This document shows, piece after piece, positions 4,442-58,000 of a DNA stretch of 64,000 nt. The notes beneath the pieces were generated by a model. The model was not told the DNA's origin. It saw only the letters and a list, made by a program, of their open reading frames with translations, and did no database searches. Each line of letters starts with the position of its first letter. Positions within the stretch are counted from its first letter, which is position 1. The DNA is from PVC group bacterium (GTDB lineage Bacteria; Omnitrophota; Gorgyraeia; B26-G9): positions 193,210 through 257,209 of the forward strand of contig JAAEQR010000072.1 of the NCBI GenBank assembly GCA_024231215.1. The letters run 5' to 3'. Position numbers and translations under genes: made by a program.

Positions 4442-5866
4442 ATGAAAAAAACCACACAGATTCGTTTCGGAACATCAGGGTGGCGGGCCATAATGGCTGA
4501 TGAGTTTACTTTTGATAATGTCCGTTTGGTAAGTCAGGCTATTGCTGATTATGTTAAATCCGAAAGTTCTTCACATAAAGTCATTGTTGGATATGATACT
4601 CGTTTCTTATCTGGAAGTTTTGCCAAAGCTTGTGCTCAGGTGCTTGCGGCAAATAAAATAAAGGTATTACTTACTGAGAGGGATACCCCCACGCCGGTTC
4701 TTGCATATCATGTTATTGATAAAAAGCTTGCGGGAGCTATAAATTTTACGGCAAGTCATAATCCTCCGGAGTATAATGGAATCAAATTTTCTTCACGTTA
4801 TGGCGGTCCGGCTCCTGAATCGGTAACTTCAGCAATTGAAAAAAGACTGGTTCAATTACAAACAACAGGGTGTATAGCTAAAAAGGGAAATTCGGAAAAT
4901 CCCCTTATAAATATATTTGACCCGAGTAAAGATTATATTAGTCGCATTAAAAAAATTATCGATTTGAAGCTTATTAAAAAAGCGCATTTAAAAATAGGCA
5001 TTGATTGTAAATATGGGACAAGCAGAGATTATATAGATAGAATTTTAAATGGCAGTTGTTCAAAGATGGTAGTGTTCAATAATACAATTAATCCGTTATT
5101 TGGCGGGTTTCCTCCTGAACCGGACAAGCCATATATAAAGCCGTTGATTGCGTTGATTAAAAAAGAGTGTTTTGATTTAGGTCTTGGTTGTGACGGAGAC
5201 GGCGACCGCTTTGGTATTGTTGATCGGGGCGGTATATTTATAACTCCGAATGAGGTTGTTACGCTTTTATTCTATTATCTCTTAAAGACTAGGAGTAGTA
5301 AGGCTAAAAAGGTAGCGCGTACTTTAGCTACAACTCACATGATTGATGCTATTGCGCGTAAAGAAGATATAGAGTTGGTAGAGACTCCGGTTGGCTTTAA
5401 ATATATCGGAGAAGCGTTGAGTAAAGGAGACTGTCTTATTGGAGGAGAAGAGTCCGGCGGACTTTCAATTATGGGTCATGTTCCGGAAAAAGATGGTATT
5501 TTGGCCTGTCTTTTGATTGCCGAGATGGTAGCTTCGGAAAAGAAATCCCTGATGGAAATACTGCGGTTGCTTTACCGTAAGTATGGATATTTCTATTCGG
5601 ATAGAATAAATCTGCATCTTGCTCCGAATCGAAAGAAGGCATTGCTTAACCGTTTACAGAAATTAAGCAGACAGAAGTCTTTTTTCGGAATGACAATAAA
5701 GAGCAAAGACTTAACTGACGGGTATAAATTCATTTTTGAACATAATTGCTGGTTAATGGTTAGGCCGTCGGGGACTGAGCCGATACTACGTTGTTATATG
5801 GAGGCAAGTTCTAAAAAGAAAGTACAAAATCTGAAAAGTTTGTTGAGGAAATATCTTCAGATATAA
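4442..5866 (+). CDS. Phosphoglucomutase/phosphomannomutase family protein
   Basis: FGTSGWRA substrate loop, TASHNPPEYNGIKF active-site serine loop, GCDGDGDRF metal-binding loop and GEESGG motif. Confidence 0.85.
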   Translation: MKKTTQIRFGTSGWRAIMADEFTFDNVRLVSQAIADYVKSESSSHKVIVGYDTRFLSGSFAKACAQVLAANKIKVLLTERDTPTPVLAYHVIDKKLAGAINFTASHNPPEYNGIKFSSRYGGPAPESVTSAIEKRLVQLQTTGCIAKKGNSENPLINIFDPSKDYISRIKKIIDLKLIKKAHLKIGIDCKYGTSRDYIDRILNGSCSKMVVFNNTINPLFGGFPPEPDKPYIKPLIALIKKECFDLGLGCDGDGDRFGIVDRGGIFITPNEVVTLLFYYLLKTRSSKAKKVARTLATTHMIDAIARKEDIELVETPVGFKYIGEALSKGDCLIGGEESGGLSIMGHVPEKDGILACLLIAEMVASEKKSLMEILRLLYRKYGYFYSDRINLHLAPNRKKALLNRLQKLSRQKSFFGMTIKSKDLTDGYKFIFEHNCWLMVRPSGTEPILRCYMEASSKKKVQNLKSLLRKYLQI

Positions 5867-5936
5867 TTTATTGGTTGACTTTTAAAAATATTAGTTGTAT
5901 ATTTATGCTAGACTAAAAAGTAAGAGGAGTGTTTTT

Positions 5937-6815
5937 TTGAGAAAAATATTACTTTTTATTGTTATATGTGCTATATTTTCAACTTCACTGGTTTTTGCGG
6001 AAAAGCAAGATAAAGTAAAGTTGAAATATGAATTTAAAGTTGGGGATACTCTCAATTATAATCTAAAAGTTGACGGAAAAGTTGAAATTGAAATAAAACC
6101 GGCAACGGGTAGAAGTTTGCCTAAAAACACGGCAAAGATGCAAGGTTCTTTTTCATATATGCAGGAAGTTACAGAAGTTGATGATATAAGTGATACAGCC
6201 AAGATTCAGGTGTCCTATGGTAATGCAAATATGGATACAATTATTGGCGATCAGACAATTCCCAATGCAGAGGTGGCGGCTTTAAACGGTAAGGTTGCTT
6301 TATTAACTGTGGCAAAAGACGGTAAAGTGAAAAATTATGATATGCCGGACGGATTGCCGGCATCTTTTCAAGGTAGTGATTTTACTAGACTTTTTGTAGA
6401 ATTCCCGGAGCATGCATTGCGTAGGGGAGAAAGCTGGTTTAGACAATCTGAATCTTCAGAAGATGCACAGGAAAATATATCAGCCAAACATGTGACCAAT
6501 TCTAAATATACTTTCCTTACGGTTGAACAAAGAGGGGCGTATAGTTGTGCTAAGGTGCGGTTAGAGAGTGAGACTAGTTCTTATACGACTTCGAATAAGA
6601 ATGACCTTAGTTTGGAGGGTGTAATAAAAGGAAAGATTAGCGGGATCATTTACTATGATCTAGTCGGTGGATACGTTGTCTATTCTGAAGTGCATACAGC
6701 CTTGGATAATGAAATTGTAACTAAAGTAAATACGGAAACACCAGAAGCTGAGGCAACAGGTTCTATAACAACAATTCTTAATACGACATTACATACGATT
6801 ACAGAATTATTGTAA
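5937..6815 (+). CDS. Secreted hypothetical protein, paralog A of the protein at 35239..36144
   Basis: In-frame TTG at 5937, 9 nt after AAGAGGAG, gives a signal peptide LRKILLFIVICAIFSTSLVFA, then EKQDKVKLKYEFKVGDTLNY... The C-terminus ...ITELL. An ATG at 5895 is an alternative start. Confidence 0.6.
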   Translation: MRKILLFIVICAIFSTSLVFAEKQDKVKLKYEFKVGDTLNYNLKVDGKVEIEIKPATGRSLPKNTAKMQGSFSYMQEVTEVDDISDTAKIQVSYGNANMDTIIGDQTIPNAEVAALNGKVALLTVAKDGKVKNYDMPDGLPASFQGSDFTRLFVEFPEHALRRGESWFRQSESSEDAQENISAKHVTNSKYTFLTVEQRGAYSCAKVRLESETSSYTTSNKNDLSLEGVIKGKISGIIYYDLVGGYVVYSEVHTALDNEIVTKVNTETPEAEATGSITTILNTTLHTITELL

Positions 6816-8769: not shown

Positions 8770-8846
<77 letters not shown>

Positions 8847-10093: not shown

Positions 10094-10170
10094 GGCGGTG
10101 TAGCTCAGCCTGGTAGAGCAAACGGCTCATACCCGTTATGTCAGTGGTTCAAATCCACTCGCCGCTACCA
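10094..10170 (+). tRNA. tRNA with CAU anticodon: elongator tRNA-Met or tRNA-Ile2 (lysidine). tilS is present in this window.
   Basis: ggcggtgtagctcagcctggtagagcaaacggctcatacccgttatgtcagtggttcaaatccactcgccgctacca. The cloverleaf folds with G1:U72, anticodon loop ctCATac and an encoded CCA. Confidence 0.8.
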
Positions 10171-34927: not shown

Positions 34928-35212
34928 ATGGATCAGGAACTTAAATTTTTGAAAACAGCAGCTGTAATTTTTAAGGTTTTAGCTTGGGTTTCAGCGATTT
35001 TCTTTCTGGTTGTGACTATGATTGTGCTTTTTGGGGCAGCAGGGCCGGACACGCCTAGAGCCGCAAGCATAGTTTTCTTATTGGGCGGTGGTTTTTATTT
35101 TCTGGTTCTTTTTGGTCTTTCAGAGGCATTGAAACTTCTTTTTAGTTTATCTGCGAAAGTTGATAAGATTCTCGGGCTTCTGTCGGGAAAGCCTGTTGAT
35201 AGAAATATATAA
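34928..35212 (+). CDS. Small two-TM membrane protein (hypothetical)
   Basis: 94 aa with two long hydrophobic segments. No domain recognised. Confidence 0.4.
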   Translation: MDQELKFLKTAAVIFKVLAWVSAIFFLVVTMIVLFGAAGPDTPRAASIVFLLGGGFYFLVLFGLSEALKLLFSLSAKVDKILGLLSGKPVDRNI

Positions 35213-35238: not shown

Positions 35239-36144
35239 TTGAAAAAAGCATTGTTAGTTGCAATATGTATGATATTTTTATGTCCATTGGTCTTTGCTGA
35301 AAAACAAGAGCAGGATAAAGTGAAATTAAAATATAATTTTAAGGTTGGAGATAACTTAACTTATCATTTGAAGATGAAAGATGAGTTATTGCTTGAAGAT
35401 GAGAGGCTAGGGGGAGAGCCTTTTAAATCAACTATAAAGTCTACGGGATTTATTAATTATGAGCAAGAAGTGCAAGGGGTTGATTTGTCGGCAGACGAAA
35501 TTAAGATAAAAGTTAGTTATGGAAGAGGTAATAAGTATATGTTTCATGGGGATAAGTTAAGCTCTAATCCAGTCTCGACTGCGCTGGATGATAAAAGTAT
35601 TCTTTTGACAATGCATTTGTCTGGCAAGTTAAAAGATAAGAATGTGATAAAAGGGCAAGGATTTTCTTTGCATGATCGTGATATTATGCAATTACTCTTT
35701 GTCGAGTTCCCCGAGAATGAATTGCAGTCAGGAGATAGTTGGGTTAAAGAGAATAATTTGCCTTTAAATATTCCTTCTAGGGATGGAGTAAAGATCTTAG
35801 CAGAGAAAAGCATCAAATCAAAATATACGCTTCTTAGTATAGAGAAGAGAGGTGTTTATGATTGTGCAAAGGTTAATCTGGAAGCAAATATTAATGGTTT
35901 TCGTGATACTGCAGGGCATGGTATTATTGTTAAGGAAAAAACCCTGGTAATTATTGACGGCTTAATATATTATGATCTGGCAACAGGGTATGTGGTATAT
36001 GCTGATCTCTCTAAGTCTATACATACCAAAGAAGTTATAAAGATTGATTCTAAGCATGAAAAAGCAACTGAGGCGAGTAAAAAATCATCTCCTGGAACAA
36101 TTATTATGGACAGAGAAGTCCATACTTCTGTAGAATTATTGTAA
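35239..36144 (+). CDS. Secreted hypothetical protein, paralog B of 5937..6815
   Basis: Signal peptide, then EKQEQDKVKLKYNFKVGDNLTYHLKMKDE... (compare paralog A EKQDKVKLKYEFKVGDTLNYNLKVDGK). Both end ...ELL. Confidence 0.6.
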   Translation: MKKALLVAICMIFLCPLVFAEKQEQDKVKLKYNFKVGDNLTYHLKMKDELLLEDERLGGEPFKSTIKSTGFINYEQEVQGVDLSADEIKIKVSYGRGNKYMFHGDKLSSNPVSTALDDKSILLTMHLSGKLKDKNVIKGQGFSLHDRDIMQLLFVEFPENELQSGDSWVKENNLPLNIPSRDGVKILAEKSIKSKYTLLSIEKRGVYDCAKVNLEANINGFRDTAGHGIIVKEKTLVIIDGLIYYDLATGYVVYADLSKSIHTKEVIKIDSKHEKATEASKKSSPGTIIMDREVHTSVELL

Positions 36145-36161
36145 TATGCAATCAGCTCACC

Positions 36162-36190
36162 TTGACAACTAACCCCTTGTATGGTATAAT
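36162..36190 (+). promoter_or_regulatory. Sigma70-like promoter (TTGACA, 17-nt spacer, TATAAT) driving the riboswitch leader
   Basis: ttgacaactaaccccttgtatggtataat is a textbook consensus. It lies about 85 nt upstream of the aptamer. Confidence 0.65.
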
Positions 36191-36269: not shown

Positions 36270-36372
36270 GGATGTTAAAATCCGAAAAGGCAAACCTCAG
36301 GAAATTGAGGGGCGCAAAGCTACGGGTCTAAAGCTAGATTGCTACGATCGCCGGGCGCACCGACAACGATAT
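36270..36372 (+). ncRNA. c-di-GMP-I (GEMM) riboswitch aptamer (putative)
   Basis: aaaaGGCAAACCtcagGAAAttgaggGGCGCAAAGCTACGGGTCtaaagc... parallels the Vibrio Vc2 aptamer (...agGGCAAACCattcGAAAgagtggGACGCAAAGCCuCCGGCCuaaacc...): a GGCAAACC strand, a GNRA-capped P1b, and a GCGCAAAGC-YR-CGGG core. Confidence 0.6.
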
Positions 36373-36385
36373 AGCATAAGTTATG

Positions 36386-36443
36386 ATAGCCGAGCTGCCG
36401 AAATTTTAGTAATTTAATTGCGGTTGTTCGGCTATTTTTATTT
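36386..36443 (+). terminator. Putative expression-platform terminator of the riboswitch leader
   Basis: atagccga ... tcggctat stem (36386..36435) followed by tttttattt, directly before the RBS and ATG of the 36455 ORF. Confidence 0.5.
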
Positions 36444-36454
36444 AGAAGGGAAAG

Positions 36455-36907
36455 ATGATGAAAAGAAACTTCTGGCTCAAATTGATTGCAGTATTAATCA
36501 TCCAGGCGTTATTTTTGACGCAGGTTGATTTTTCTTTGGCTGCAGTTTATCAGAGTAAAGAAGTTTTGCAGGAAGGCGTCTTGAAACTAGTGAGAATAAA
36601 AGATGCCGATACCAGCTTGATTAGCGGTATTAGCTGTGTATACTTTGCAGTATTTTCTATCTTAAGGGGATCTGGAACATCCATAACAGAATTGGTTTAC
36701 GGGGGAGAAGTACGCACAGATACTAAACATATTTATAAAGCGTTTATTCATCAGGAAGACAAGATAATTGCAGATAATACAGGTTTTAGTATTATAGAGA
36801 TTATAAATAATGGCAAACAACTAGAACAGGCAAGTACTCAAAATTCAAGAGCACCTCCGGCTGAAGAAAAAATAGCGTTGATGTTTACACAAACCCGAAC
36901 TACATAA
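36455..36907 (+). CDS. Small secreted protein whose N-terminal leader is homologous to that of the giant protein
   Basis: MMKRNFWLKLIAVLIIQALFLTQVDFSLAAVYQSKEV compared with the giant protein MQGLTGKLWFKIIAFIVLQTFMFVQADISWAANYRQQ. 150 aa, no other domain recognised. Confidence 0.6.
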   Translation: MMKRNFWLKLIAVLIIQALFLTQVDFSLAAVYQSKEVLQEGVLKLVRIKDADTSLISGISCVYFAVFSILRGSGTSITELVYGGEVRTDTKHIYKAFIHQEDKIIADNTGFSIIEIINNGKQLEQASTQNSRAPPAEEKIALMFTQTRTT

Positions 36908-36928
36908 TTTAATAGTTCGGGTTTTTTG
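36891..36928 (+). terminator. Rho-independent terminator enclosing the stop codon of the 36455 ORF
   Basis: aaacccgaacta...tagttcgggtttttt. Confidence 0.7.
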
Positions 36929-36953
36929 TGTCTAAAATATATACAGAAGGGAG

Positions 36954-37343
36954 ATGAGAAAGATGATTGAAAAACGCAGATTTCCCAGAGTAAATCATGA
37001 GTGCCCTGTTCAGTTGAAAACAATGCGTGGAACCGGCTCTAACTTGATGAAAAATTCATTTTCTAAGAATGTAAGCCAGAGCGGAATGGAACTAGTTTCT
37101 TTTGATTTTTATCCGGTTAATGACAGGGTTCAGGTACAAGTTTTTTCAAGCAGTTATGCTAGCATGATGCAGGCAGTAGGCAGAATAGTATGGGTGCAGC
37201 AGTTACCTAACCAAGAAAAATATCGCATAGGTATTGAATTAGTGGAAGTAAGCCGTAGTGCTTACCGAAAACTTACATCTTTGGTTCAGAATACGTTGTT
37301 AAGTCATGGGATTGGATTACAGGGGGATATGAATGTTGCATAA
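36954..37343 (+). CDS. PilZ-domain (c-di-GMP-binding) protein
   Basis: RRFPR (RxxxR) followed about 30 aa later by NVSQSG ((D/N)xSxxG). These are the two c-di-GMP-contacting motifs of PilZ. 129 aa, single domain. Confidence 0.7.
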   Translation: MRKMIEKRRFPRVNHECPVQLKTMRGTGSNLMKNSFSKNVSQSGMELVSFDFYPVNDRVQVQVFSSSYASMMQAVGRIVWVQQLPNQEKYRIGIELVEVSRSAYRKLTSLVQNTLLSHGIGLQGDMNVA

Positions 37344-38664
37344 GCAGAGCGTATTAACATATCTTAGACATAGTCAACAGTCTTTTTCAATATTTTGGGA
37401 CTGTTCTGCTTTGAATCTGAAGTGTTGGAGCCGGATTATAATATTTGCTTTGGTATTTATTTTATTACTTTCGACACTTGTTCGAGGTCAGTTTTCGGAT
37501 AAAGAATACGGTAGTTCTAATGGTAAACGCAAGCCGATATTAAGAGAAGATCAGATTCCGGTAAAAGACGGGGTTTCATATTCAGCATTTGAAGAGACGT
37601 CTGTTTCCAAGAGCCGGGAGTCAGAAGGAGTCAGAACTACAATTAGCGGCTTATTGGATGCGGGATATGACTTAGAGGAAGTTGTTGTGCTTTTAGAAAA
37701 ACAAGGACATAGCGCGGCATCAATTAGTATCGTTTGTCTGGATCCTCAGTTTAAACTAGATGCCAAGCAGATACATAGTGCTTTGCATAAAGCTGGGTTT
37801 TCAAAGCAGGAAGCAGATGGCGCTGTTCCTGTATCATTGCGCCAGGCAAAACAGTTATTTTATCAGCCGGCGAAGAATAATTCTAAATCAGTTATTGCAG
37901 AAAAATCATTAGAGTCTCAGGCAGTTGAATCGCTTCAAGTGAGTGCTCCGGCAGTCAAACCTTTAATAAATAGTGAAACAGAATTAAAAAGTACAATCAA
38001 TACTCTTAAACGCTCAAGGGTTTCTACTCCTCAGATTGTAGAAGTTTTAAAAGAACTTGGCGTATCTTCAGATAGTATAGTTAAAGCTTTTGATGAGATC
38101 CAAAGCGGGAGTTCAACCGATGGGTTTAATGGTCTGGGGGAATGGAAATCATTTCAAAACGCAAGATACGATAATGTAAAAAGTGAAGCAGCGATAATTG
38201 CTTCGGATATAGAACTTGTCAGTTCGCTTCGCGCTTCAGGTTATACGACTAAAGATATTGTACAAAGTATAATGTCTAGACCTAAAAATAAAAACATTTC
38301 AGATAGTTCTAATTTAATAAGAAAAATGGTTAAAATTTTATGTAAATCCGAGATTAATTTAGAAGATACCGTGAATACTTTAAAAGATAATGGGGTTTCC
38401 TCAGAAACGATTATTATTGCGTTTATGGGAAAGCCTGTTTCATTGATAGATAAAATAAAATCAGGAATGTTATTTAGCAATAATACTACTAAAACAGCTA
38501 ATAAAATTATTAAAGGAGTAGTTAACGGAGTAACTTTAAAAACTGTAATTAAAGACCTGCAGCATTCAGGTCATAAAAATAAAGATATTGTTAGTGCCCT
38601 GGATTTTTTGCAGGTTTCCGGAGTGCAGACATCTGAAATATTTAATCAGACAGCGAGGAGGTAA
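37333..38664 (+). CDS. Membrane-anchored repeat protein with at least 8 copies of a ~18-aa 'G(F/Y)S..(D/E)I..A' motif
   Basis: Single N-terminal TM (RIIIFALVFILLLSTLV). Repeats include ISGLLDAGYDLEEVVVLL, IHSALHKAGFSKQEADGAVP, IVEVLKELGVSSDSIVKAF, LVSSLRASGYTTKDIVQSI, TVNTLKDNGVSSETIIIAF and VIKDLQHSGHKNKDIVSAL. Confidence 0.6.
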   Translation: MLHKQSVLTYLRHSQQSFSIFWDCSALNLKCWSRIIIFALVFILLLSTLVRGQFSDKEYGSSNGKRKPILREDQIPVKDGVSYSAFEETSVSKSRESEGVRTTISGLLDAGYDLEEVVVLLEKQGHSAASISIVCLDPQFKLDAKQIHSALHKAGFSKQEADGAVPVSLRQAKQLFYQPAKNNSKSVIAEKSLESQAVESLQVSAPAVKPLINSETELKSTINTLKRSRVSTPQIVEVLKELGVSSDSIVKAFDEIQSGSSTDGFNGLGEWKSFQNARYDNVKSEAAIIASDIELVSSLRASGYTTKDIVQSIMSRPKNKNISDSSNLIRKMVKILCKSEINLEDTVNTLKDNGVSSETIIIAFMGKPVSLIDKIKSGMLFSNNTTKTANKIIKGVVNGVTLKTVIKDLQHSGHKNKDIVSALDFLQVSGVQTSEIFNQTARR

Positions 38665-38669
38665 TAGCG

Positions 38670-39944
38670 ATGAAAAACTTAATAACCAGGATTTTGTGTA
38701 TAACGGTTATATTTTTATTTACGCTTGCGCCGTATTGCTTTGCAGGGTGGGGAAACGTAAGAAAAACAATAGATATGGAGACTAATAAAGATAAAGTTGA
38801 TTCTGCTCAAATAGATAATAAAGAGACTCCATATTCTCATATAAGTACACTAGAGCAAGGTAAAGCAGAGGTTAAGACTTCGAATGAAGAGACAAAAGCT
38901 ACGGTTACAGGGTTAAAAGATGCGGGTTTTTCTGTAGATGCGATTGTGAATAATTTAAAGAACGGGGGCAAAAATGCTTCTGAGATAAGTGTGGCTTGTT
39001 TAGGTTGCAATATCAGTGGCGCGGCAGTACATGCAGCGTTGATTAAATCTGGATTTTCCAAAGAAAGCGCTGATTCAGTAGTGCCGGCAGGATTAATAAA
39101 TCAAGAGTCTGAGGCTTCAATAGCACAGAGCCAAACAGGAAATACTTTAAGCGAAGTGACTGCTCCATTAATTAGTGATTTAGTTTTTGTTCCAATGGAT
39201 AATAATGTTGGAGAAGTATCAGCTAGTGTAGGAGAAGTGGCTTCTGTTGGGTTGAACGATACCAAGCAGGAAGCTTTACAGTTTGCAAAAGATGAACTTG
39301 GAGAAATGCCTCAGAAACCGGAACTTAAAGGGAGAGGTTTCTTTAGCAAAATTATTCGAATATTAGTTTTTCGTATTAAAGTTATCAATAAGATGAAAAA
39401 AGCAGAGAAGACTTCTAAAAAAATGGTAGAAAATGGATATTCTTCTGCGGAAATAGGACATGCTTTTGCTGGAATCGGATACAGTCAGAGACAGACGGCA
39501 ATATTATTAAAAACATCTGGTTTTTCGACAGAAGAAGCATATACAGGTTTGCTGGAAAGCACGGACATTTGGCAGGGGGCAGAGGAGAAAACTATTGCGA
39601 AGTCTATGATTGAAGCAGGATATAATGAAACAGAAGTTGATGCCGCTTTAATCGGTAGTCTGAAAAAACAGGGATATACAGCACAGGAAGTGGTTAATAC
39701 TATTTTTTCAGACATGCCTGAACAGCCAAAAGCAAAAGCGTTAAGTGGTTGGAGAGGTATTATGGTTAGAATCTTAAGAACTGTTTATAATCGTAATATG
39801 GAGGTAAAAGTACAAAAGGCGGAAAAAGCAGCTCAGAATATGATTCGCAGTGGATATAGTAGTGAAGAAGTAAAGGGAGCTTTTAGAAATGCAGGATTTA
39901 ATGATACAAACGCAGTTAAAATATTAAATGCCATTGGCGCGTAA
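38670..39944 (+). CDS. Secreted repeat protein, paralog of 37333..38664 (same G(F/Y)S repeat family)
   Basis: Signal peptide MKNLITRILCITVIFLFTLAPYCFA. Repeats TVTGLKDAGFSVDAIVNNL, VHAALIKSGFSKESADSVVP, MVENGYSSAEIGHAFAGIGYSQRQTAILLKTSGFSTEEAY, MIEAGYNETEVDAALIGSLKKQGYTAQEVVNTIF and MIRSGYSSEEVKGAFRNAGFNDTNAVKILNAIGA. Confidence 0.6.
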   Translation: MKNLITRILCITVIFLFTLAPYCFAGWGNVRKTIDMETNKDKVDSAQIDNKETPYSHISTLEQGKAEVKTSNEETKATVTGLKDAGFSVDAIVNNLKNGGKNASEISVACLGCNISGAAVHAALIKSGFSKESADSVVPAGLINQESEASIAQSQTGNTLSEVTAPLISDLVFVPMDNNVGEVSASVGEVASVGLNDTKQEALQFAKDELGEMPQKPELKGRGFFSKIIRILVFRIKVINKMKKAEKTSKKMVENGYSSAEIGHAFAGIGYSQRQTAILLKTSGFSTEEAYTGLLESTDIWQGAEEKTIAKSMIEAGYNETEVDAALIGSLKKQGYTAQEVVNTIFSDMPEQPKAKALSGWRGIMVRILRTVYNRNMEVKVQKAEKAAQNMIRSGYSSEEVKGAFRNAGFNDTNAVKILNAIGA

Positions 39945-40004
39945 TTATTGATAAAATATATAAAAAAATGATAAACTAATAAATGAATAAACAAAGGAGA
40001 AAAA

Positions 40005-43000
40005 ATGCAAGGACTAACTGGTAAGCTGTGGTTTAAAATCATAGCCTTCATCGTTTTACAAACTTTTATGTTTGTGCAGGCAGATATATCCTGGGCGGCA
40101 AATTATCGTCAGCAAAAAGGCCAGGGCGAGAGGGTTGTTGATGAACGCGATAAAGTATCTAAAGACGCGTTAAATACCCAGGTAGTTCTAAATCAGCCTG
40201 CAGTACCGTTTATTAGTTTTGATCCGGGGATTGCTCCGCCTCGTTCGGAAAAACTATCTTTAATCGAGACAACCATAGAAGGTTTGTCGATGGCCGGTAC
40301 GAATTTAAAAACTATATTTGGTACTTTAAAGAATTCCGGTTGTTCGGTATCAGAAACTGGTTTTGCGGCGATGCGGCAGGGATATCCAAAACACGAAATC
40401 TATAAAGCTTTGATCAGCGCCGGGTATGATAAAGAAGAAGTAAAGACAATGCTTGGTAGTATATTACAGCGTGAAGAAGAAAAGAAATCAGAAGATGAAT
40501 CAGCTAACCAGAAGACAGGACCGCCGCTAGACAAAGAGAAAAAGGATGCTGATAAAGAAGCTTCCTTTTTAGACGCAGAACAACCAATCCCCGAATCTTC
40601 CGAAGTGACCGCCCTTTCTGTGGGCAAAGATCCCGTTAAAATAATCGAAAAAGCAACAGCTGATAATGCGGTAATGAACCAGACAGTTGCGTTTGTACGT
40701 TTAATGATCAATGAAGGTAAACGTGGTAAAGAGCTTATAAAGACTTTAAAGAAAGCCGGACTTACTAATGAAAGAATTGTCATGGCTTTGGCTCAGTTAG
40801 GTTTTAGCTTGGATGATATTGTCGCTATATTTAAAGAAGCGGATATCAGCGCTACAGAAATTATTCAGGCCATACACAATGGCTTTTTGGCGTTTAGCGA
40901 TAAAGATATTTATAATGCCCTGCTTAAAAACGGATTTAGTGATAAAGATATTATTGCCGCATTTAAAACAGCCGGAGTATCTTCAGAAGATGTTTTAAAG
41001 ATAGCTACACAATTAAGCCGGAATATGGTGAGTGTGGCCAAGGCAATGGTGGAGGTAGGTTTTAGTTATGCTGATATTGCCAAAGCATATCTTTTAAAGG
41101 CAATGAAATGGACTTTTGATAAGAGTGTGCATGTTGTGAACTGTGCGGTCAAGGCATTTGACGCATTTCTTACTAATATCGGCCGTAAATTTACAAGCAA
41201 AGAAGAACTTGCCTATGAACTCATTGTAGATGATATCCTGCGTACCGGAGAAGTAGAGATTACCGGTAAAGATGTAATGACTTCTATGCTGGCAATAAAG
41301 AATGTTGCCCAGAAATATGGAATAGATATGCAGGGGTATAATTTGACCCTGGAAAGCCTGATGGAATTAAATGACGCAGCGATTGTGCATTTAGACGGTG
41401 ATCACTGGGTAAGTTTGCAAAATATAGATGGTGATCAGGTTTCAATTATTGATAACGGAGAAGAGAAGACAATTTCTCTTACTGAACTAAAAATTCGTTG
41501 GGATGGCAATACATTAGCGATCAATCAGGAGAGAACACAATACCAAGAGCTTTTAGATTTACAGATGCGTCAGATACGTGGTGGTAGAGGTTGGAATCCT
41601 TTTAAAGCGATAAAGAAAATATTTAAAGCAGTTAAAAATTTTATTGTAAAGACTGTTAAAGCTATAGTTAATATAACTAAAGCTGTATTTTATACAATTA
41701 CGGGAAATACACAAAAAGCAGATTATTATTATAACAGGGGTTTTCAACAGTTAAGCCAAGCGCTTAACTCGCTTATCAATGCAGTAGTTCCTGGTAAGTT
41801 CCTACAGAAAATTTTTAAATCTATTGCCAATGGATTGGTTATGTTTGCCCGAGGAATGGTTAATCAGATAAGAGGCTTGTGTATGATGGCTCGGGGTGAT
41901 TTTAAACAGGGATTTAAAACATATCTTATGGGAGTTGTGCAGACTGCGGTTGCTCCGCTAGTTAGTCTCTATGGGATGTTAGGAGAAAAAGTAGGTAGGG
42001 TCGTAGCCAAGGTTATTCAGTGGGTAGTACGTATTGTTGCAGCTGTATTAAGTTTTGTTTGTACTAAAATTTTTGGCTGGACAGGAATAGGAATGGCTAT
42101 AGGAATGGCTATTGCTTTTGTAGCTACCGTAATTACCTGTATGGTGGATTATGATTTTGTTCAGATGGTTCAACGTGGTGATGCGAATGAAATTGCGAGT
42201 GTTATGGGCAAAATATTTAAGGCGGCAGCTATATCCGCAGTAATTGCTGCTGTTGCTTTTTGTATAGGAGGAGCTATCCAGGGATTAGGAGGCACCGCAT
42301 CAACAACAGGCTCAACAATAGCAACAACAGTAGGTAGTATTGTGAGTACTGTAGCCAAGGCAGCAATTACTGTAGCTAAGACTGCAATGACTGTAGCCAA
42401 GTTTGTATTAGCTCCTGTAATAACGGTAGTCAATGTTTTAGCTAGAGCTGCAATGACTGTAGTTACTGCTATAACTAAAATTGTAATGACTGTAGTTAAG
42501 GTTATAGTTGATGGTATGAATCATGTAGTGAGAATGGTGACAAACTTTTTAAAACCTATGATTGAGAATCTTAAGAATTCTATAGTGAATATGGTGAAAG
42601 CTATAAAACCAGATGCAGTTATTCAGGAGATAGGAAGCGAGGTAATTGAAGAAGCTATAACAAAGGTAGTAAAGGAACAAATTGCAATGTATGTTGCTAC
42701 TAAAGGATTGGACTCTGCTGGGATTGATGATCCTTATGTGAGGGCTGGTATTGTAGGTGCTATTGGTGCATGGGCTGGGGGAGACGGCTTTAAAATTGAT
42801 GCAAAAGATGTGGTTGAAGGAGTTTTTATCGGGACAACTCAGGAGACAATAAGGCAGCAGGGATATAAACGTAATTGGGATCCTTTACTTATAGAAAGTC
42901 TCGCTACTGTAGGAGGGACAGTAGTTGGTGCGTCTATAGGTGCTATTCAAACTTCTAGGACAGTTTATACTGGTACCTGGGCGAGTAGAACAATGGATAA

Positions 43001-55000: not shown

Positions 55001-58000
55001 TATTTTAGGTAATGATGGGAACTATACTGTAGGACAAAAAGCTGAAATACTAAGTGTGTTATTACAGACTGCGGATCAGGGAATAATGCAGGTAAGGTTT
55101 GATCTGGAGGCATCTGGGCTTGAAAACTTAACAGCCAATGATATTAAAGAGGCTCAAAACGTAGAAGCAAAGATAAATAATGAGATCCAAGGCATGTTTG
55201 GTTACCGCAGAGTAGTGCTTGAGAAAGGAACTCTTAACAAGATTGTGGGTACTGATAGGGCCTTACTAGAAAATCTAGTCAAGTCCGGATATGTTTCTGT
55301 AAGAGAAATAAAAAATGTAAAAACTTATGCGATTACACGTAAATTTGTTGATTTAAAGAATTCAGATGGTATGGAAATATCAGGAGTATCTGCAGAGCAG
55401 AAGAATCTAGTATTTAATACATTACGTAATGAATTTGATAGTCATAGTCAGGATAAATCTTCATATACTCCGCTTATTCAGGAAGGGGTAAATCAGGTAG
55501 ATGCTGTATTAAATCTGATTATTAATCCGAATACATTATTCAGGATCCCGACTGGAACCGGAAAAACATATTATATCTTTACAGCAGCAGCTTCGATTAA
55601 TAAAGCATTAGGTCGAAAGACTGTATACGTGGTGCATGATTTGAATCAGTTTTCTATACAGGCAGATGATGAATCCCGTGCAAATTGGTTTGAATATAAC
55701 GGAATGAAATGGGCAACGATATCCAACGGCCAGAATAATCTTGTCGGTGATCATCACTTTGAACTCAATGCTTTGGAAGCAAATAAAAATGGAGAAGCAC
55801 AGCGATTGCAGGAAAACAGTGATGTGATAATCATGTCTGCGGATGTACTTTCCTTCTTTGAAAATGCTTTGGGTAAAGAAAAAGGTTCTGAAACTACGCA
55901 TATGCAGAAAACATGGGATACGATTTTTGGGAATAATACCATGTTGTTATTTGATGAAGCAGATACGATTTTCTTTAAACAGAGAGCCCAGTCAGGAGAA
56001 GGCGCTAAATCGCTTACTATAGAGAATAAGTTAATTCAAAGAGGTGTGCATTATGAATTTATAGGTAATACATTAGGTTTATGGGGGAAAATCAACAAAA
56101 GTGATTTTAGTGAAACTGAATTGAATCAGATGCATGATGAAGGATATATTAATAAGGATACGGGAAATATTCAGTATGGTTTTGTGCATTTGGTGAGAAC
56201 TAGTGATAAATCAGCAGATAGCAGAAAAACTTTATCTGGGGCTTTGGAAACAAAATTAAGTGATATTGTTAACAAACAAGATTCTCAGGGGCAAACCTTG
56301 TTGACTAAACCTGGAGAACAAATGGACCATCTAAGGTCAATGCTAACGGCTACCTATACTGTGTATAATTGGGAGGGGACAAAAATTGTTCCCCAGAAAA
56401 AAGCCTCTTATATAGAGTACAAACAGGACAAACAGAAGGCTGAAAAAGAAGGAAATCAGGTTGTTGTTACTGGATTTATGTTTAATCAAGAGCTTGTCGA
56501 TCAGTATAAAGGCTGGGTGGAAAAACAATTACCCGGAGATGTAAAGATTGATGATATAGAAAATCCAACTAATATTTCCGAAGAGAATAAGCATAAAGTG
56601 CGTGAATACCGTCGTTCTTTAAAGGCTGTGGCTAAGGTAATATTGCAAGTAGATGGTATTGATGTTGGATATGATCCTGATTCTGGATTAATTCGTCCAG
56701 CTCCGGGTGGTGTTGTTACTCCGGAACTTCAGCTTCAGGATCCTTATTTTGCGGGGCATACACAGTTATTATTTGCCGAAATGAGAGATGTCGAGCAGTC
56801 AGCTATAACTAAGCGTTATGAAAAGGAACTTAAAGCTCAACAGCAAAAAGATGTTAAAGCAGATGCGGAAGACCTGAAATATGCGGATAATTTATATAAA
56901 GTGACAGTATCTGACTGGTCTCGTGTAACTACTATAGATAAGAGTATACGCCGGGCGATGGCTTCCGGCGCTAATATTTGCGGGTTTACCGGTACTTATG
57001 ATGCGGTAACAGACATGGCTTTTCAGCTTTATGGCTTACGTCATAAGTATATGGGGAATAAGTTCCAGTATATCACTTCTATCAGCTGTGATGATCTGGT
57101 GAAAAACGGCGTAGAGGAATCCGCTGCTGATGCTGTATTTAACGACCTTTTTCAGCAGGGATATATTAATAAAGACGGTGTTGTTAGAATAGAGAAATTC
57201 TATGAACTAAATAATGCTTCTGAGTTACAGTTATCTACTCAGGATACGTTTTTACAGAACGCTGTGTTTAATACTTTGAACAATGCTCAGGAAGGCAGAA
57301 TAAATCATGTTTATGAAGCTGATAACTCAGCAAATGCTTTAGAGCATGTATTTAATGATATTGCGGCTAAGGTAATTAAGAACGGTTATATTATGAATGG
57401 TATGCAAACGTTCAATGAAGGTGAAATCAGTAAGAATGTTGTTAATAATTTTGAATCGCTGTTTGCAAATAATCTGAAGAATTTTGTAATTAATAAAGAG
57501 ACTGGAGCAGCGGAGCTAACTGTTGTGGTTAAAGATCAGAAAACAGAATGGGATGTGTATAGAATCCACTATGACCATCAGATAGGAAAAATAGATGTCG
57601 AACATGTGAAGACTCAGGATAAACAAGGTCTCGAAACAACAAAACATAAAACTGGTAAGATTCAGAAATATATGGAAAATCATCAGAATGTATTTTTCTA
57701 TCTTAACCCTTCGGCGAGTAGAGCTACTGATATTGAATCGGTGCATAGTTGGTTAAGCGAGCAGCAAGCAAAATCTATGGAAGCAGATGATTTAAAATCA
57801 GCGGTCAGGAGTAATCTAAAAAACTATGCTCTCTGTGATCGGGAATCCACCAGATGGATGTTTGAACAGTTGGCTGGCCGTGACCGCGGGGCACGAAATA
57901 ATAGCGGCCAACGCGATAACTTTGTTACGATAAACGGACAGAAAATATATCATGACCTTGATGTTTATGTGGTTGACCCGGCGGCACAGTCAGGTGTTAA

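Follow-up and report, generated by a model that had tools for sequence, protein, structure and literature searches.

Organization of the locus

We analysed a 64,000-nucleotide (nt) stretch of DNA from a bacterium of the Omnitrophota (assembly GCA_024231215.1, contig JAAEQR010000072.1, positions 193,210 to 257,209; hereafter the window), in which a small open reading frame (ORF) and a giant gene begin with similar leader peptides. The small ORF (36455-36907, plus strand) encodes 150 amino acids (aa) and is on record as a hypothetical protein. It had no match to a Pfam or NCBIfam family and has about 30 homologues, all of them linked to Omnitrophota. The giant protein (40005-63452, plus strand, taken from the ORF listing) comprises 7,815 aa and carries a C39 peptidase-like domain near its N-terminus (E = 5.5e-10). 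Genes for a PilZ-domain protein and two secreted repeat proteins lie between the two, a cyclic di-GMP (c-di-GMP) riboswitch precedes the small ORF, and the operon carries two terminators in series, here called T1 and T2.

The related genomic loci, which are designated L001 and so on below, all came from metagenome-assembled genomes of Candidatus Omnitrophota. Their gene order was a ROK-family gene, a membrane protein of about 94 aa, the riboswitch, the small ORF, T2, PilZ, one to three repeat proteins and the giant gene, with PilZ and the repeat proteins as optional members. The giant gene was found 3' of the small ORF in every locus with a contig long enough to show it.

The leader shared by the small ORF and the giant protein

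The leader of the small ORF (36455-36553, plus strand) reads as an n-region MMKRNFWLK, a hydrophobic core LIAVLIIQALFLT and a c-region QVDFSLA, followed past the putative cleavage site by A and then VYQ. The leader of the giant (40005-40109, plus strand) is MQGLTGKLWFKIIAFIVLQTFMFVQADISWA, continues with ANYR past the corresponding site, and is conserved in orthologous giants. Both are Sec-type in their layout: the n-region is positive, about 13 hydrophobic residues form the core, and [S/A]-x-A precedes a further A. Cleavage and Sec dependence, being read from this layout, are putative.

Residues 7-33 of the small ORF (WLKLIAVLIIQALFLTQVDFSLAAVYQ) and residues 9-35 of the giant (WFKIIAFIVLQTFMFVQADISWAANYR; numbered 8-34 in the initial annotation of this DNA) were identical at 11 of 27 positions in register (41%). 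BLASTP aligned the two leaders with 11/31 identities and 18/31 positives (E = 4e-5). The pair had been called near-identical, which overstates this degree of likeness. The similarity itself is real, with the sequences as they had been quoted. None of 100,000 in-register shuffles matched the score or the identity count of the pair (p < 1e-5). When the N-termini of the 72 window ORFs of at least 80 aa were compared with the small leader, the giant scored 65 and all others scored 37 or less, about 18 hydrophobic ones included. In the six-frame translation of the window, the motif Q.D.S.AA was confined to the small ORF and the giant. The likeness was also retained in related genomes: in all combinations from five genomes, small and giant leaders shared 9-15 of 27 residues.

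The leaders were then considered within their own families. The small-ORF leader follows the pattern IIQALLLTQVDF[AS]LA[AS], which is nearly invariant among the approximately 30 homologues, and the leaders of the giant orthologues follow KLWFK.IA.IV.[QE].F....D[IV][ST]WAA[ND]Y. Mean identity among orthologues of the small ORF was 66% in the leader versus 35% in the remainder, and the leader of the giant reached 63% among its orthologues. Over the same evolutionary distances, the putative signal peptides of the neighbouring secreted proteins were 19% (443-aa protein) and 24% (424-aa protein, an ordinary one) identical, as expected for ordinary signal peptides. Together with the specificity of the profile search described below and the scores of 65 versus at most 37, these values bear out the earlier suggestion that the conservation goes beyond that of a generic signal peptide. 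The invariant residues of the leader were each encoded by three to four synonymous codons, which indicates selection on the peptide rather than on an RNA element. The leader likeness is homology maintained by selection on the peptide.

An RNA element of the riboswitch platform had been considered as the cause of the leader conservation, and it was rejected on account of the same synonymous codons. Gene conversion between the two leaders was rejected as well: leader pairs from the same genome were no more similar than pairs from different genomes, and the window leaders were identical at 47 of 81 nt (58%). More generally, it is extremely improbable that the resemblance is that of any two hydrophobic Sec signal peptides, or that it stems from a recent duplication or conversion. 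The ordinary n/h/c layout and the [S/A]-x-A site of both leaders would fit such an origin, but the shuffles, the gap to the other hydrophobic N-termini and the persistence in five genomes without a same-genome excess argue against it, as does homology that goes on past the leader.

Some Sec-type signal peptides, such as YSIRK-G/S, ESPR and KxYKxGKxW, carry a conserved motif beyond the n/h/c layout and mark many unrelated cargoes per genome. The initial annotation had suggested a dedicated targeting signal, such as one for a specific export or sorting route. A profile of the two leaders gave 37 matches at E <= 1e-3 among 1.84 billion representative proteins. These were small ORFs (124-228 aa, or fragments), N-termini of giants or giant fragments, and two low-complexity false positives. 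The members of both families all belonged to Candidatus Omnitrophota. Unlike the YSIRK-like classes, the leader is confined to two paralogous families, with nothing else in the window. Judged by this distribution, it is not a general sorting tag.

Origin of the small ORF

The homology between the two proteins was not limited to their leaders. The small-ORF family was aligned by hhalign with the first 215 residues of 14 giants at a probability of 99% (E = 2.8e-18, 130 columns), pairing small residues 2-138 with giant residues 4-177. With both leaders removed, the alignment still reached 94% (E = 8.6e-8). It contained one 'IF..LK.SG.S..E..IYKAL' repeat, and at its end S[TR][GA]PP of the small protein was paired with KTGPP of the giant. 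Reversed controls and 20 column-shuffled ones gave E >= 0.04. The homology therefore spans about 135 residues. As a paralogue the small ORF is ancient and truncated, and it corresponds to the first approximately 177 residues of the giant, a module made up of the leader, one helical repeat and the xGPP motif. An origin by duplication, as the initial annotation had it, is upheld by this alignment. The word 'recent' is not, given the 47/81 nt and the lack of a same-genome excess.

The paired motif of the window giant is TGPP at residues 171-174 (40515-40526, plus strand), within a variable charged linker. KTGPP was conserved in 11 of 15 giant N-termini, and the window giant has three PP dipeptides in its 7,815 aa. 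The giant N-termini were taken from the loci and from the profile search; a word-indexed search with giant residues 1-200 gave one match. Another giant, of 7,803 aa (P0045, L011 8001-31412), is distant, occupies the same ROK-linked position and has an intermediate leader, KKLWFKFITVLLIQAFLFTNSNFSLAADF. It lacks KTGPP, and neither a riboswitch nor a small ORF nor PilZ is found upstream of it. L011 may represent the state before duplication. The leaderless homology, the KTGPP-bearing giants and the locus without a small ORF together indicate that the small ORF derives from a giant gene with KTGPP, the 5' end of which was duplicated in a single subclade of the Omnitrophota.

A different relation to the giant was also considered, in which the small protein would be the N-terminal half, with the catalytic Cys, of a C39 peptidase. 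This was rejected: the small protein had no Pfam match up to E = 10, and the giant has a complete C39-like region of its own.

The terminator at the stop codon

A second conserved element lies at the 3' end of the small ORF. T2 (36894-36927, plus strand) consists of CCCGAACUA, a loop in which UAA (36905-36907) stands as the stop codon, UAGUUCGGG and a run of six U (RNAfold -19 kcal/mol, z = -6.1). It was established by folding and pattern search, as its 10-nt loop exceeds the 8-nt limit of the consensus terminator scan. The DNA pattern CCGAAY..RTTCGG occurred as a single copy in the window and in each of ten loci, always at the stop of the small ORF; in RNA form the element reads CCGAAYUG...CARUUCGG followed by the U-run. 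Across all 13 distinct loci, T2 had a stem of 8-13 base pairs (bp), -15 to -23 kcal/mol and a run of U5-U9, and its 5' arm was formed by the last codons of the small ORF, with the stop codon in the loop. Counted within the element, the position of the stop codon is 9, 10 or 16 nt. Translation passes through the stem in two frames, giving the C-termini ..PNC, ..NRIV and ..NRTxxI, so T2 is conserved at the nucleotide level. An intrinsic terminator is here overlapped by a translated leader ORF, as in attenuators of the pyrL type.

From the U-run of T2 to the next start codon there are only 26-55 nt in the window, L001, L009 and L014. The PilZ start codon is 26 nt past the U-run and 46 nt past the stop codon of the small ORF, and in the window, L001 and L009 the distance from the U-run to the next start codon was 26-40 nt. 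In L014 the giant itself is the next gene, about 55 nt past the stop codon, with T2 in between. The only promoter-like match here had 9 of 12 consensus positions and overlapped T2. The narrow spacing, above all in L014, suggests that transcription of the downstream genes has to cross T2.

The x[AG]PP motif

Shortly before T2, the small ORF of the window carries RAPP at residues 132-135 (36848-36859, plus strand), a candidate ribosome arrest site. The corresponding motif x[AG]PP was present in all 29 aligned members of the family (TGPP in 14, RAPP in 5, RGPP in 4, TAPP in 4, QAPP and QGPP in 1 each) and, as IGPP, in L017; P0048 was the sole member without it. The R-first and Q-first variants appeared in at least four separate clades. 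In the 19,498 aa of the window proteins, RAPP occurred once, in the small ORF. The motif ends a conserved island of about 10 residues and stands 11-17 residues from the C-terminus, and the distance from the predicted cleavage site to the second Pro was 78-121 residues. The T2 stem followed the last Pro codon at a distance of 35-36 nt in 11 of the 13 distinct loci; the remaining two had 30 and 33 nt.

RAPP, RGPP, QAPP and TGPP are among the listed motifs of candidate arrest upstream ORFs (uORFs) (PMC10987492). RAPP and RGPP are the most avoided tetrapeptides of bacterial proteomes, are reported to be resistant to EF-P, and show enrichment close to the C-terminus in small secreted proteins whose ORFs stand 5' of diverse genes (PMC12992588). 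We compared the small ORF with the features of RAPP-like arrest ORFs given in PMC7897499 and PMC10987492, which include a small ORF of 80-200 aa. The small ORF has 150 aa and no family, co-directional genes follow it, and it has a spacer of more than 30 residues and a conserved C-terminal motif. In place of the gene for a Sec or YidC component that would be expected downstream, the locus has PilZ, the giant gene and two genes for repeat proteins between them. Since RAPP uORFs are reported 5' of other classes of genes (PMC12992588), the only class excluded by this is the narrow one of 'Sec monitors'.

The Pro-Pro codons (CCUCCG, resembling an anti-Shine-Dalgarno sequence) might also have paired with the Shine-Dalgarno sequence of PilZ, as in a SecM-like switch. 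This candidate was rejected. RNAfold gave a pairing of 3-5 bp in some loci, and the codons vary (CCU CCG, CCG CCU and CCG CCG), so that the pairing is not conserved.

The c-di-GMP riboswitch and terminator T1

The aptamer of the riboswitch (36279-36402, plus strand) matched the c-di-GMP-I family (Rfam RF01051) over its full length, with 74.9 bits where the gathering score is 35. A riboswitch stands 5' of the small ORF in nearly all loci: aptamers of this clan were detected there in 13 distinct ones, and L002 and L008, being duplicates of L001 and L003, yielded no match of their own. In three loci the best match of the aptamer was c-di-GMP-I-GGC (RF03167) rather than RF01051 (L005 2126-2249, L010 8101-8224 and L014 2760-2880), and the ligand specificity of the riboswitch may differ between lineages.

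The expression platform is T1 (36385-36445, plus strand), a stem followed by UAUUUUUAUUU (RNAfold -23.7 kcal/mol, z = -5.5). Its 5' arm is the 3' strand of the aptamer, and equivalent hairpins were found at L001 9795-9845 and L003 5990-6040. We infer that binding of c-di-GMP prevents T1, making the element an ON switch on transcription. The initial annotation had placed a riboswitch before the small ORF and supposed that it gates translation of the small protein. The riboswitch is there, with c-di-GMP as its ligand class, but since the platform is a terminator, what it gates is most likely the transcription of the entire operon and not translation of the small protein.

A 16-nt repeat, CAGGATGAAATRAYCC, was noted in one to three copies in several related loci and in none in the window. 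It mostly stands right after T1 or T2. Its sites are L001 9841-9856; L006 2747-2762, 2856-2871 and 3448-3463; L007 6512-6527; L012 2787-2802 and 2841-2856; and L016 946-961.

A proposed mechanism of attenuation

Considering these elements together, we propose that the small ORF may be a RAPP-type arrest ORF combined with a transcription attenuator, in which the leader of the giant itself would serve as the sensor. Our confidence in this reading of the sequences is tentative, falling slightly below even. The small ORF would act mainly in cis, as the translated leader of the operon, once the riboswitch has opened T1. A ribosome translating it would pause or arrest at the RAPP-like motif, about 80-120 residues after emergence of the leader. 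Since no other part of the ORF is as constrained as the leader, and since the cargo carries a matching one, we propose that release of the arrest depends on engagement of the leader by the export machinery, whose pull on the nascent chain would free the ribosome. The freed ribosome, close behind RNA polymerase, would run onto T2 and block the hairpin, and transcription would continue into PilZ and the giant gene. A ribosome at the stop codon would cover the entire T2 hairpin, whereas one on the Pro-Pro codons cannot reach the stem. If the arrest lasted, the polymerase would move ahead, T2 would form, and the 23-kb gene would stay untranscribed. Because such a sensor bears the cargo's own leader, it would report on the export route that the giant needs. 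The physical principle has a precedent in Escherichia coli, where a polyproline stall 5' of the pyrL terminator uncouples ribosome and polymerase and raises termination 26- to 32-fold if unrelieved (PMC5021804).

Several points weigh against this proposal. It requires kinetic coupling of transcription and translation in Omnitrophota, as the stalled ribosome cannot itself reach the hairpin. The fixed spacing of 35-36 nt between Pro-Pro codons and stem is not accounted for. In half of the family T, and not R, precedes [AG]PP; substitution of the Arg abolished arrest in ApdA and ApdP (PMC7897499), so TGPP may be only a pause of the EF-P type. Two mid-region motifs, SL..G..CVQL..SGL.LP and IYKVF, are kept in most members of the small-ORF family, and a pure spacer would need none. 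Lastly, no conserved hairpin was found behind KTGPP in the giants compared, and the function of the motif may be unrelated to attenuation.

The last two points speak for a different role, in which the small protein truly works as a partner of the giant, either secreted or in the membrane. The two would carry the same leader for the same destination, T2 would be a constitutive partial terminator that gives a high ratio of small to giant protein, and xGPP, shared with the giant, would serve structure or processing. Operons commonly contain internal terminators that grade expression, and the homology is to a real domain of the giant. In orthologues that share 59% identity in the N-terminus of the giant, however, the mature part of the small protein reaches only 35%. 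In an AlphaFold2 model (alignment of 20 sequences), residues 3-52 formed a helix, the leader helix was the only confident part, and residues 52-150 had predicted local distance difference test (pLDDT) scores below 50. The members from L003 (124 aa) and L017 (151 aa) are very divergent and have no recognisable mid-region, but they retain the leader, xGPP, tail length and hairpin. Conservation is seen in the nucleotides of the hairpin and in the spacing between it and the Pro-Pro codons, but not in the tail peptide after the motif. We consider a partner role unlikely, although it deserves to be taken seriously, and the co-exported partner or chaperone-like factor of the initial annotation is not favoured.

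The same motif and terminator could also work as an attenuator without any sensing of export. Translation-coupled read-through of T2 would then depend on general translation capacity, such as EF-P activity, prolyl-tRNA or ribosome speed, and the leader would only localise a by-product peptide. An engineered PPPPPP-pyrL behaves in this way and is EF-P-dependent (PMC5021804), and the commonest variants here, TGPP and TAPP, are ordinary EF-P-type motifs and not the canonical RAPP. This explanation leaves aside why the leader is the most conserved part and why it matches that of the downstream cargo. It also fits poorly with the repeated shifts to RAPP and RGPP, given their reported resistance to EF-P (PMC12992588). 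We regard it as quite improbable.

The opposite polarity was weighed as well. In the characterised monitoring substrates (SecM, MifM, VemP and uDF_RQH), an arrest prolonged by failure of export turns the downstream genes on (PMC10987492, PMC7897499). By analogy, failed export would here upregulate a giant whose helicase-like module drives its own export, and SecA-like DEAD domains have been reported in giant Omnitrophota proteins (bioRxiv 10.1101/2023.11.21.568195). At this locus, however, the stall site lies 35 nt 5' of the hairpin, too distant for melting by a stalled ribosome. No conserved alternative helix was found between the Pro-Pro codons and T2 in the folded loci that could act as an anti-terminator, nor was a conserved helix sequestering a Shine-Dalgarno sequence. 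The helicase-like region of the window giant (55302-57704, aa approximately 5100-5900) gave only weak Pfam matches to ResIII and DEAD (aa approximately 5170-5330, E = 2e-5 and 2e-3), without a SecA_DEAD match in Pfam or a sequence match in PDB. The SecA-like assignment reported for other Omnitrophota giants is thus not confirmed for this one, and a SecM-like polarity appears very improbable.

Returning to the small ORF as an arrest ORF and attenuator, the scheme could be extended to the cargo itself, a speculative step that we think rather unlikely to be right. The N-terminal module of the giant (leader, about 140 residues and KTGPP) would be a pause in elongation, released by force, that holds translation back up to engagement of the leader, and its duplicated copy would serve as an upstream test cargo whose release from arrest licenses read-through of T2. 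The 23-kb gene would then be transcribed only if c-di-GMP is high and the export machinery accepts the leader. The two serial attenuators would amount to an AND gate, with a polarity opposite to that of SecM.

Comparison with known systems

The small ORF resembles the RAPP-like arrest peptides (ApdA, ApdP and the RQH family) as well as SecM, VemP and MifM in being a uORF in the range of 100-200 aa that has no annotated function and is followed by co-directional genes (PMC7897499, PMC10987492, PMC12992588). Like them it has a putative signal or anchor at its N-terminus, a conserved C-terminal R/Q/T-[A/G]-P-P and more than 30 residues of spacer, although arrest is in this case a prediction. It differs from them in several respects. 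Its downstream genes encode cargo (PilZ and the giant secreted protein) and not Sec or YidC components, the tail past the Pro-Pro is 11-17 residues long instead of about 5, and the uORF is paralogous to the N-terminus of the very protein that it would regulate. The RNA element, moreover, is an intrinsic terminator around the stop codon and not a helix that sequesters a Shine-Dalgarno sequence, so the predicted polarity is reversed.

In pyrL (pyrBI) attenuation and in the engineered PPPPPP-pyrL (PMC5021804), a translated leader ORF likewise runs into an intrinsic terminator, a close ribosome blocks the hairpin, and a proline stall uncouples the two. The input of pyrL is UTP-sensitive pausing of the polymerase; here it would be the release of a nascent-chain arrest by export, and no polymerase pause site was identified. 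The uORFs of CutF and CruR, as they are cited in PMC10987492, have a proline-rich or RAPP C-terminus and stand 5' of non-Sec genes. Unlike the small ORF they have no paralogy with the gene that they regulate, and that paper's short account of them mentions no terminator around a stop codon.

The giant is similar to the 'Archaeovorin-type' giants of Omnitrophota in its putative signal peptide, its C39 peptidase-like domain near the N-terminus and the adjacent pilZ (bioRxiv 10.1101/2023.11.21.568195, 10.64898/2026.06.07.730766). Many transmembrane segments and a SecA_DEAD-like domain are further marks of that type. It differs from the published giants in that pilZ is upstream here and downstream there, and in the lack of a SecA_DEAD match in Pfam. 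In the full text of these two papers the word 'riboswitch' does not occur; the first is also without 'c-di-GMP', and the second without 'leader' or 'arrest'. Neither Omnitrophota nor PilZ nor terminators came up in a search of the 2025 RAPP survey. Riboswitches of the c-di-GMP-I family, uORFs with RAPP-like motifs, terminators masked by ribosomes and the giant proteins of Omnitrophota are each of a known kind, but their combination appears to be undescribed, and a uORF paralogous to the leader-bearing N-terminus of the regulated protein appears to be new.

Recent work on the giant genes of Omnitrophota leaves open how a bacterium decides to produce and export a protein of thousands to more than 100,000 residues, and it describes no cis-regulatory element for such genes. 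The present locus offers a concrete control unit before a giant gene, composed of a c-di-GMP riboswitch, a leader ORF with the cargo's leader, a RAPP-like motif and a terminator. If the proposed mechanism is true, it would extend arrest peptides from inducers of the export machinery to sensors that license cargo, and from translational to transcriptional control, and it would give an example of a sensor that originated when the 5' end of the gene under its control was duplicated. Should the model fail, there would still be a well-defined, Omnitrophota-specific family of about 30 members whose leader is under unusually strong selection at the peptide level.

Other features of the operon and the window

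A promoter of the sigma-70 type lies about 90 nt 5' of the aptamer (36162-36190, plus strand). With TTGACA, a spacer of 17 nt, TATAAT and an extended TG, it matches the consensus at 12 of 12 positions and probably marks the start of the operon. The PilZ-domain protein (36954-37343, plus strand, 129 aa) was assigned to PF07238 in Pfam (E = 1.6e-9) and has the motifs RRFPR and NVSQSG. It is followed on the same strand by the secreted repeat proteins of 443 aa (37333-38664, from the ORF listing, with the true start codon uncertain) and 424 aa (38670-39944; BLASTP against giant residues 90-380, E = 2e-7). Both consist of helical 'GLxxAGxSxxxIVxxLK' repeats of the same type as giant residues approximately 90-380. 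Thus, by sequence, the operon is a set of paralogous pieces of the N-terminal part of the giant. Further into the giant, a hydrophobic cluster was read at aa approximately 640-800.

Upstream of the operon, a membrane protein of about 90 aa with two helices (window 34928-35212) was also found in L001, L004-L007, L009-L011 and L014. It follows the pattern ..FKVLAW.SA.FF..V..IVL.GAGG.D.PRAA...FLLGGG.YFL.LF.. and gave no match in the family library search. It always stands 3' of the ROK-family gene, even in L011, which has neither riboswitch nor small ORF. Between this gene and the riboswitch, the window contains an inserted gene (35239-36144) that is not found at this place in the related loci. 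It is one of two paralogues of about 300 aa with signal peptides, the other being at 5895-6815 (38% identity, E = 2e-59). Two tRNA genes, unrelated to the leader finding, are located on the plus strand at 8770-8843 and 10094-10167.

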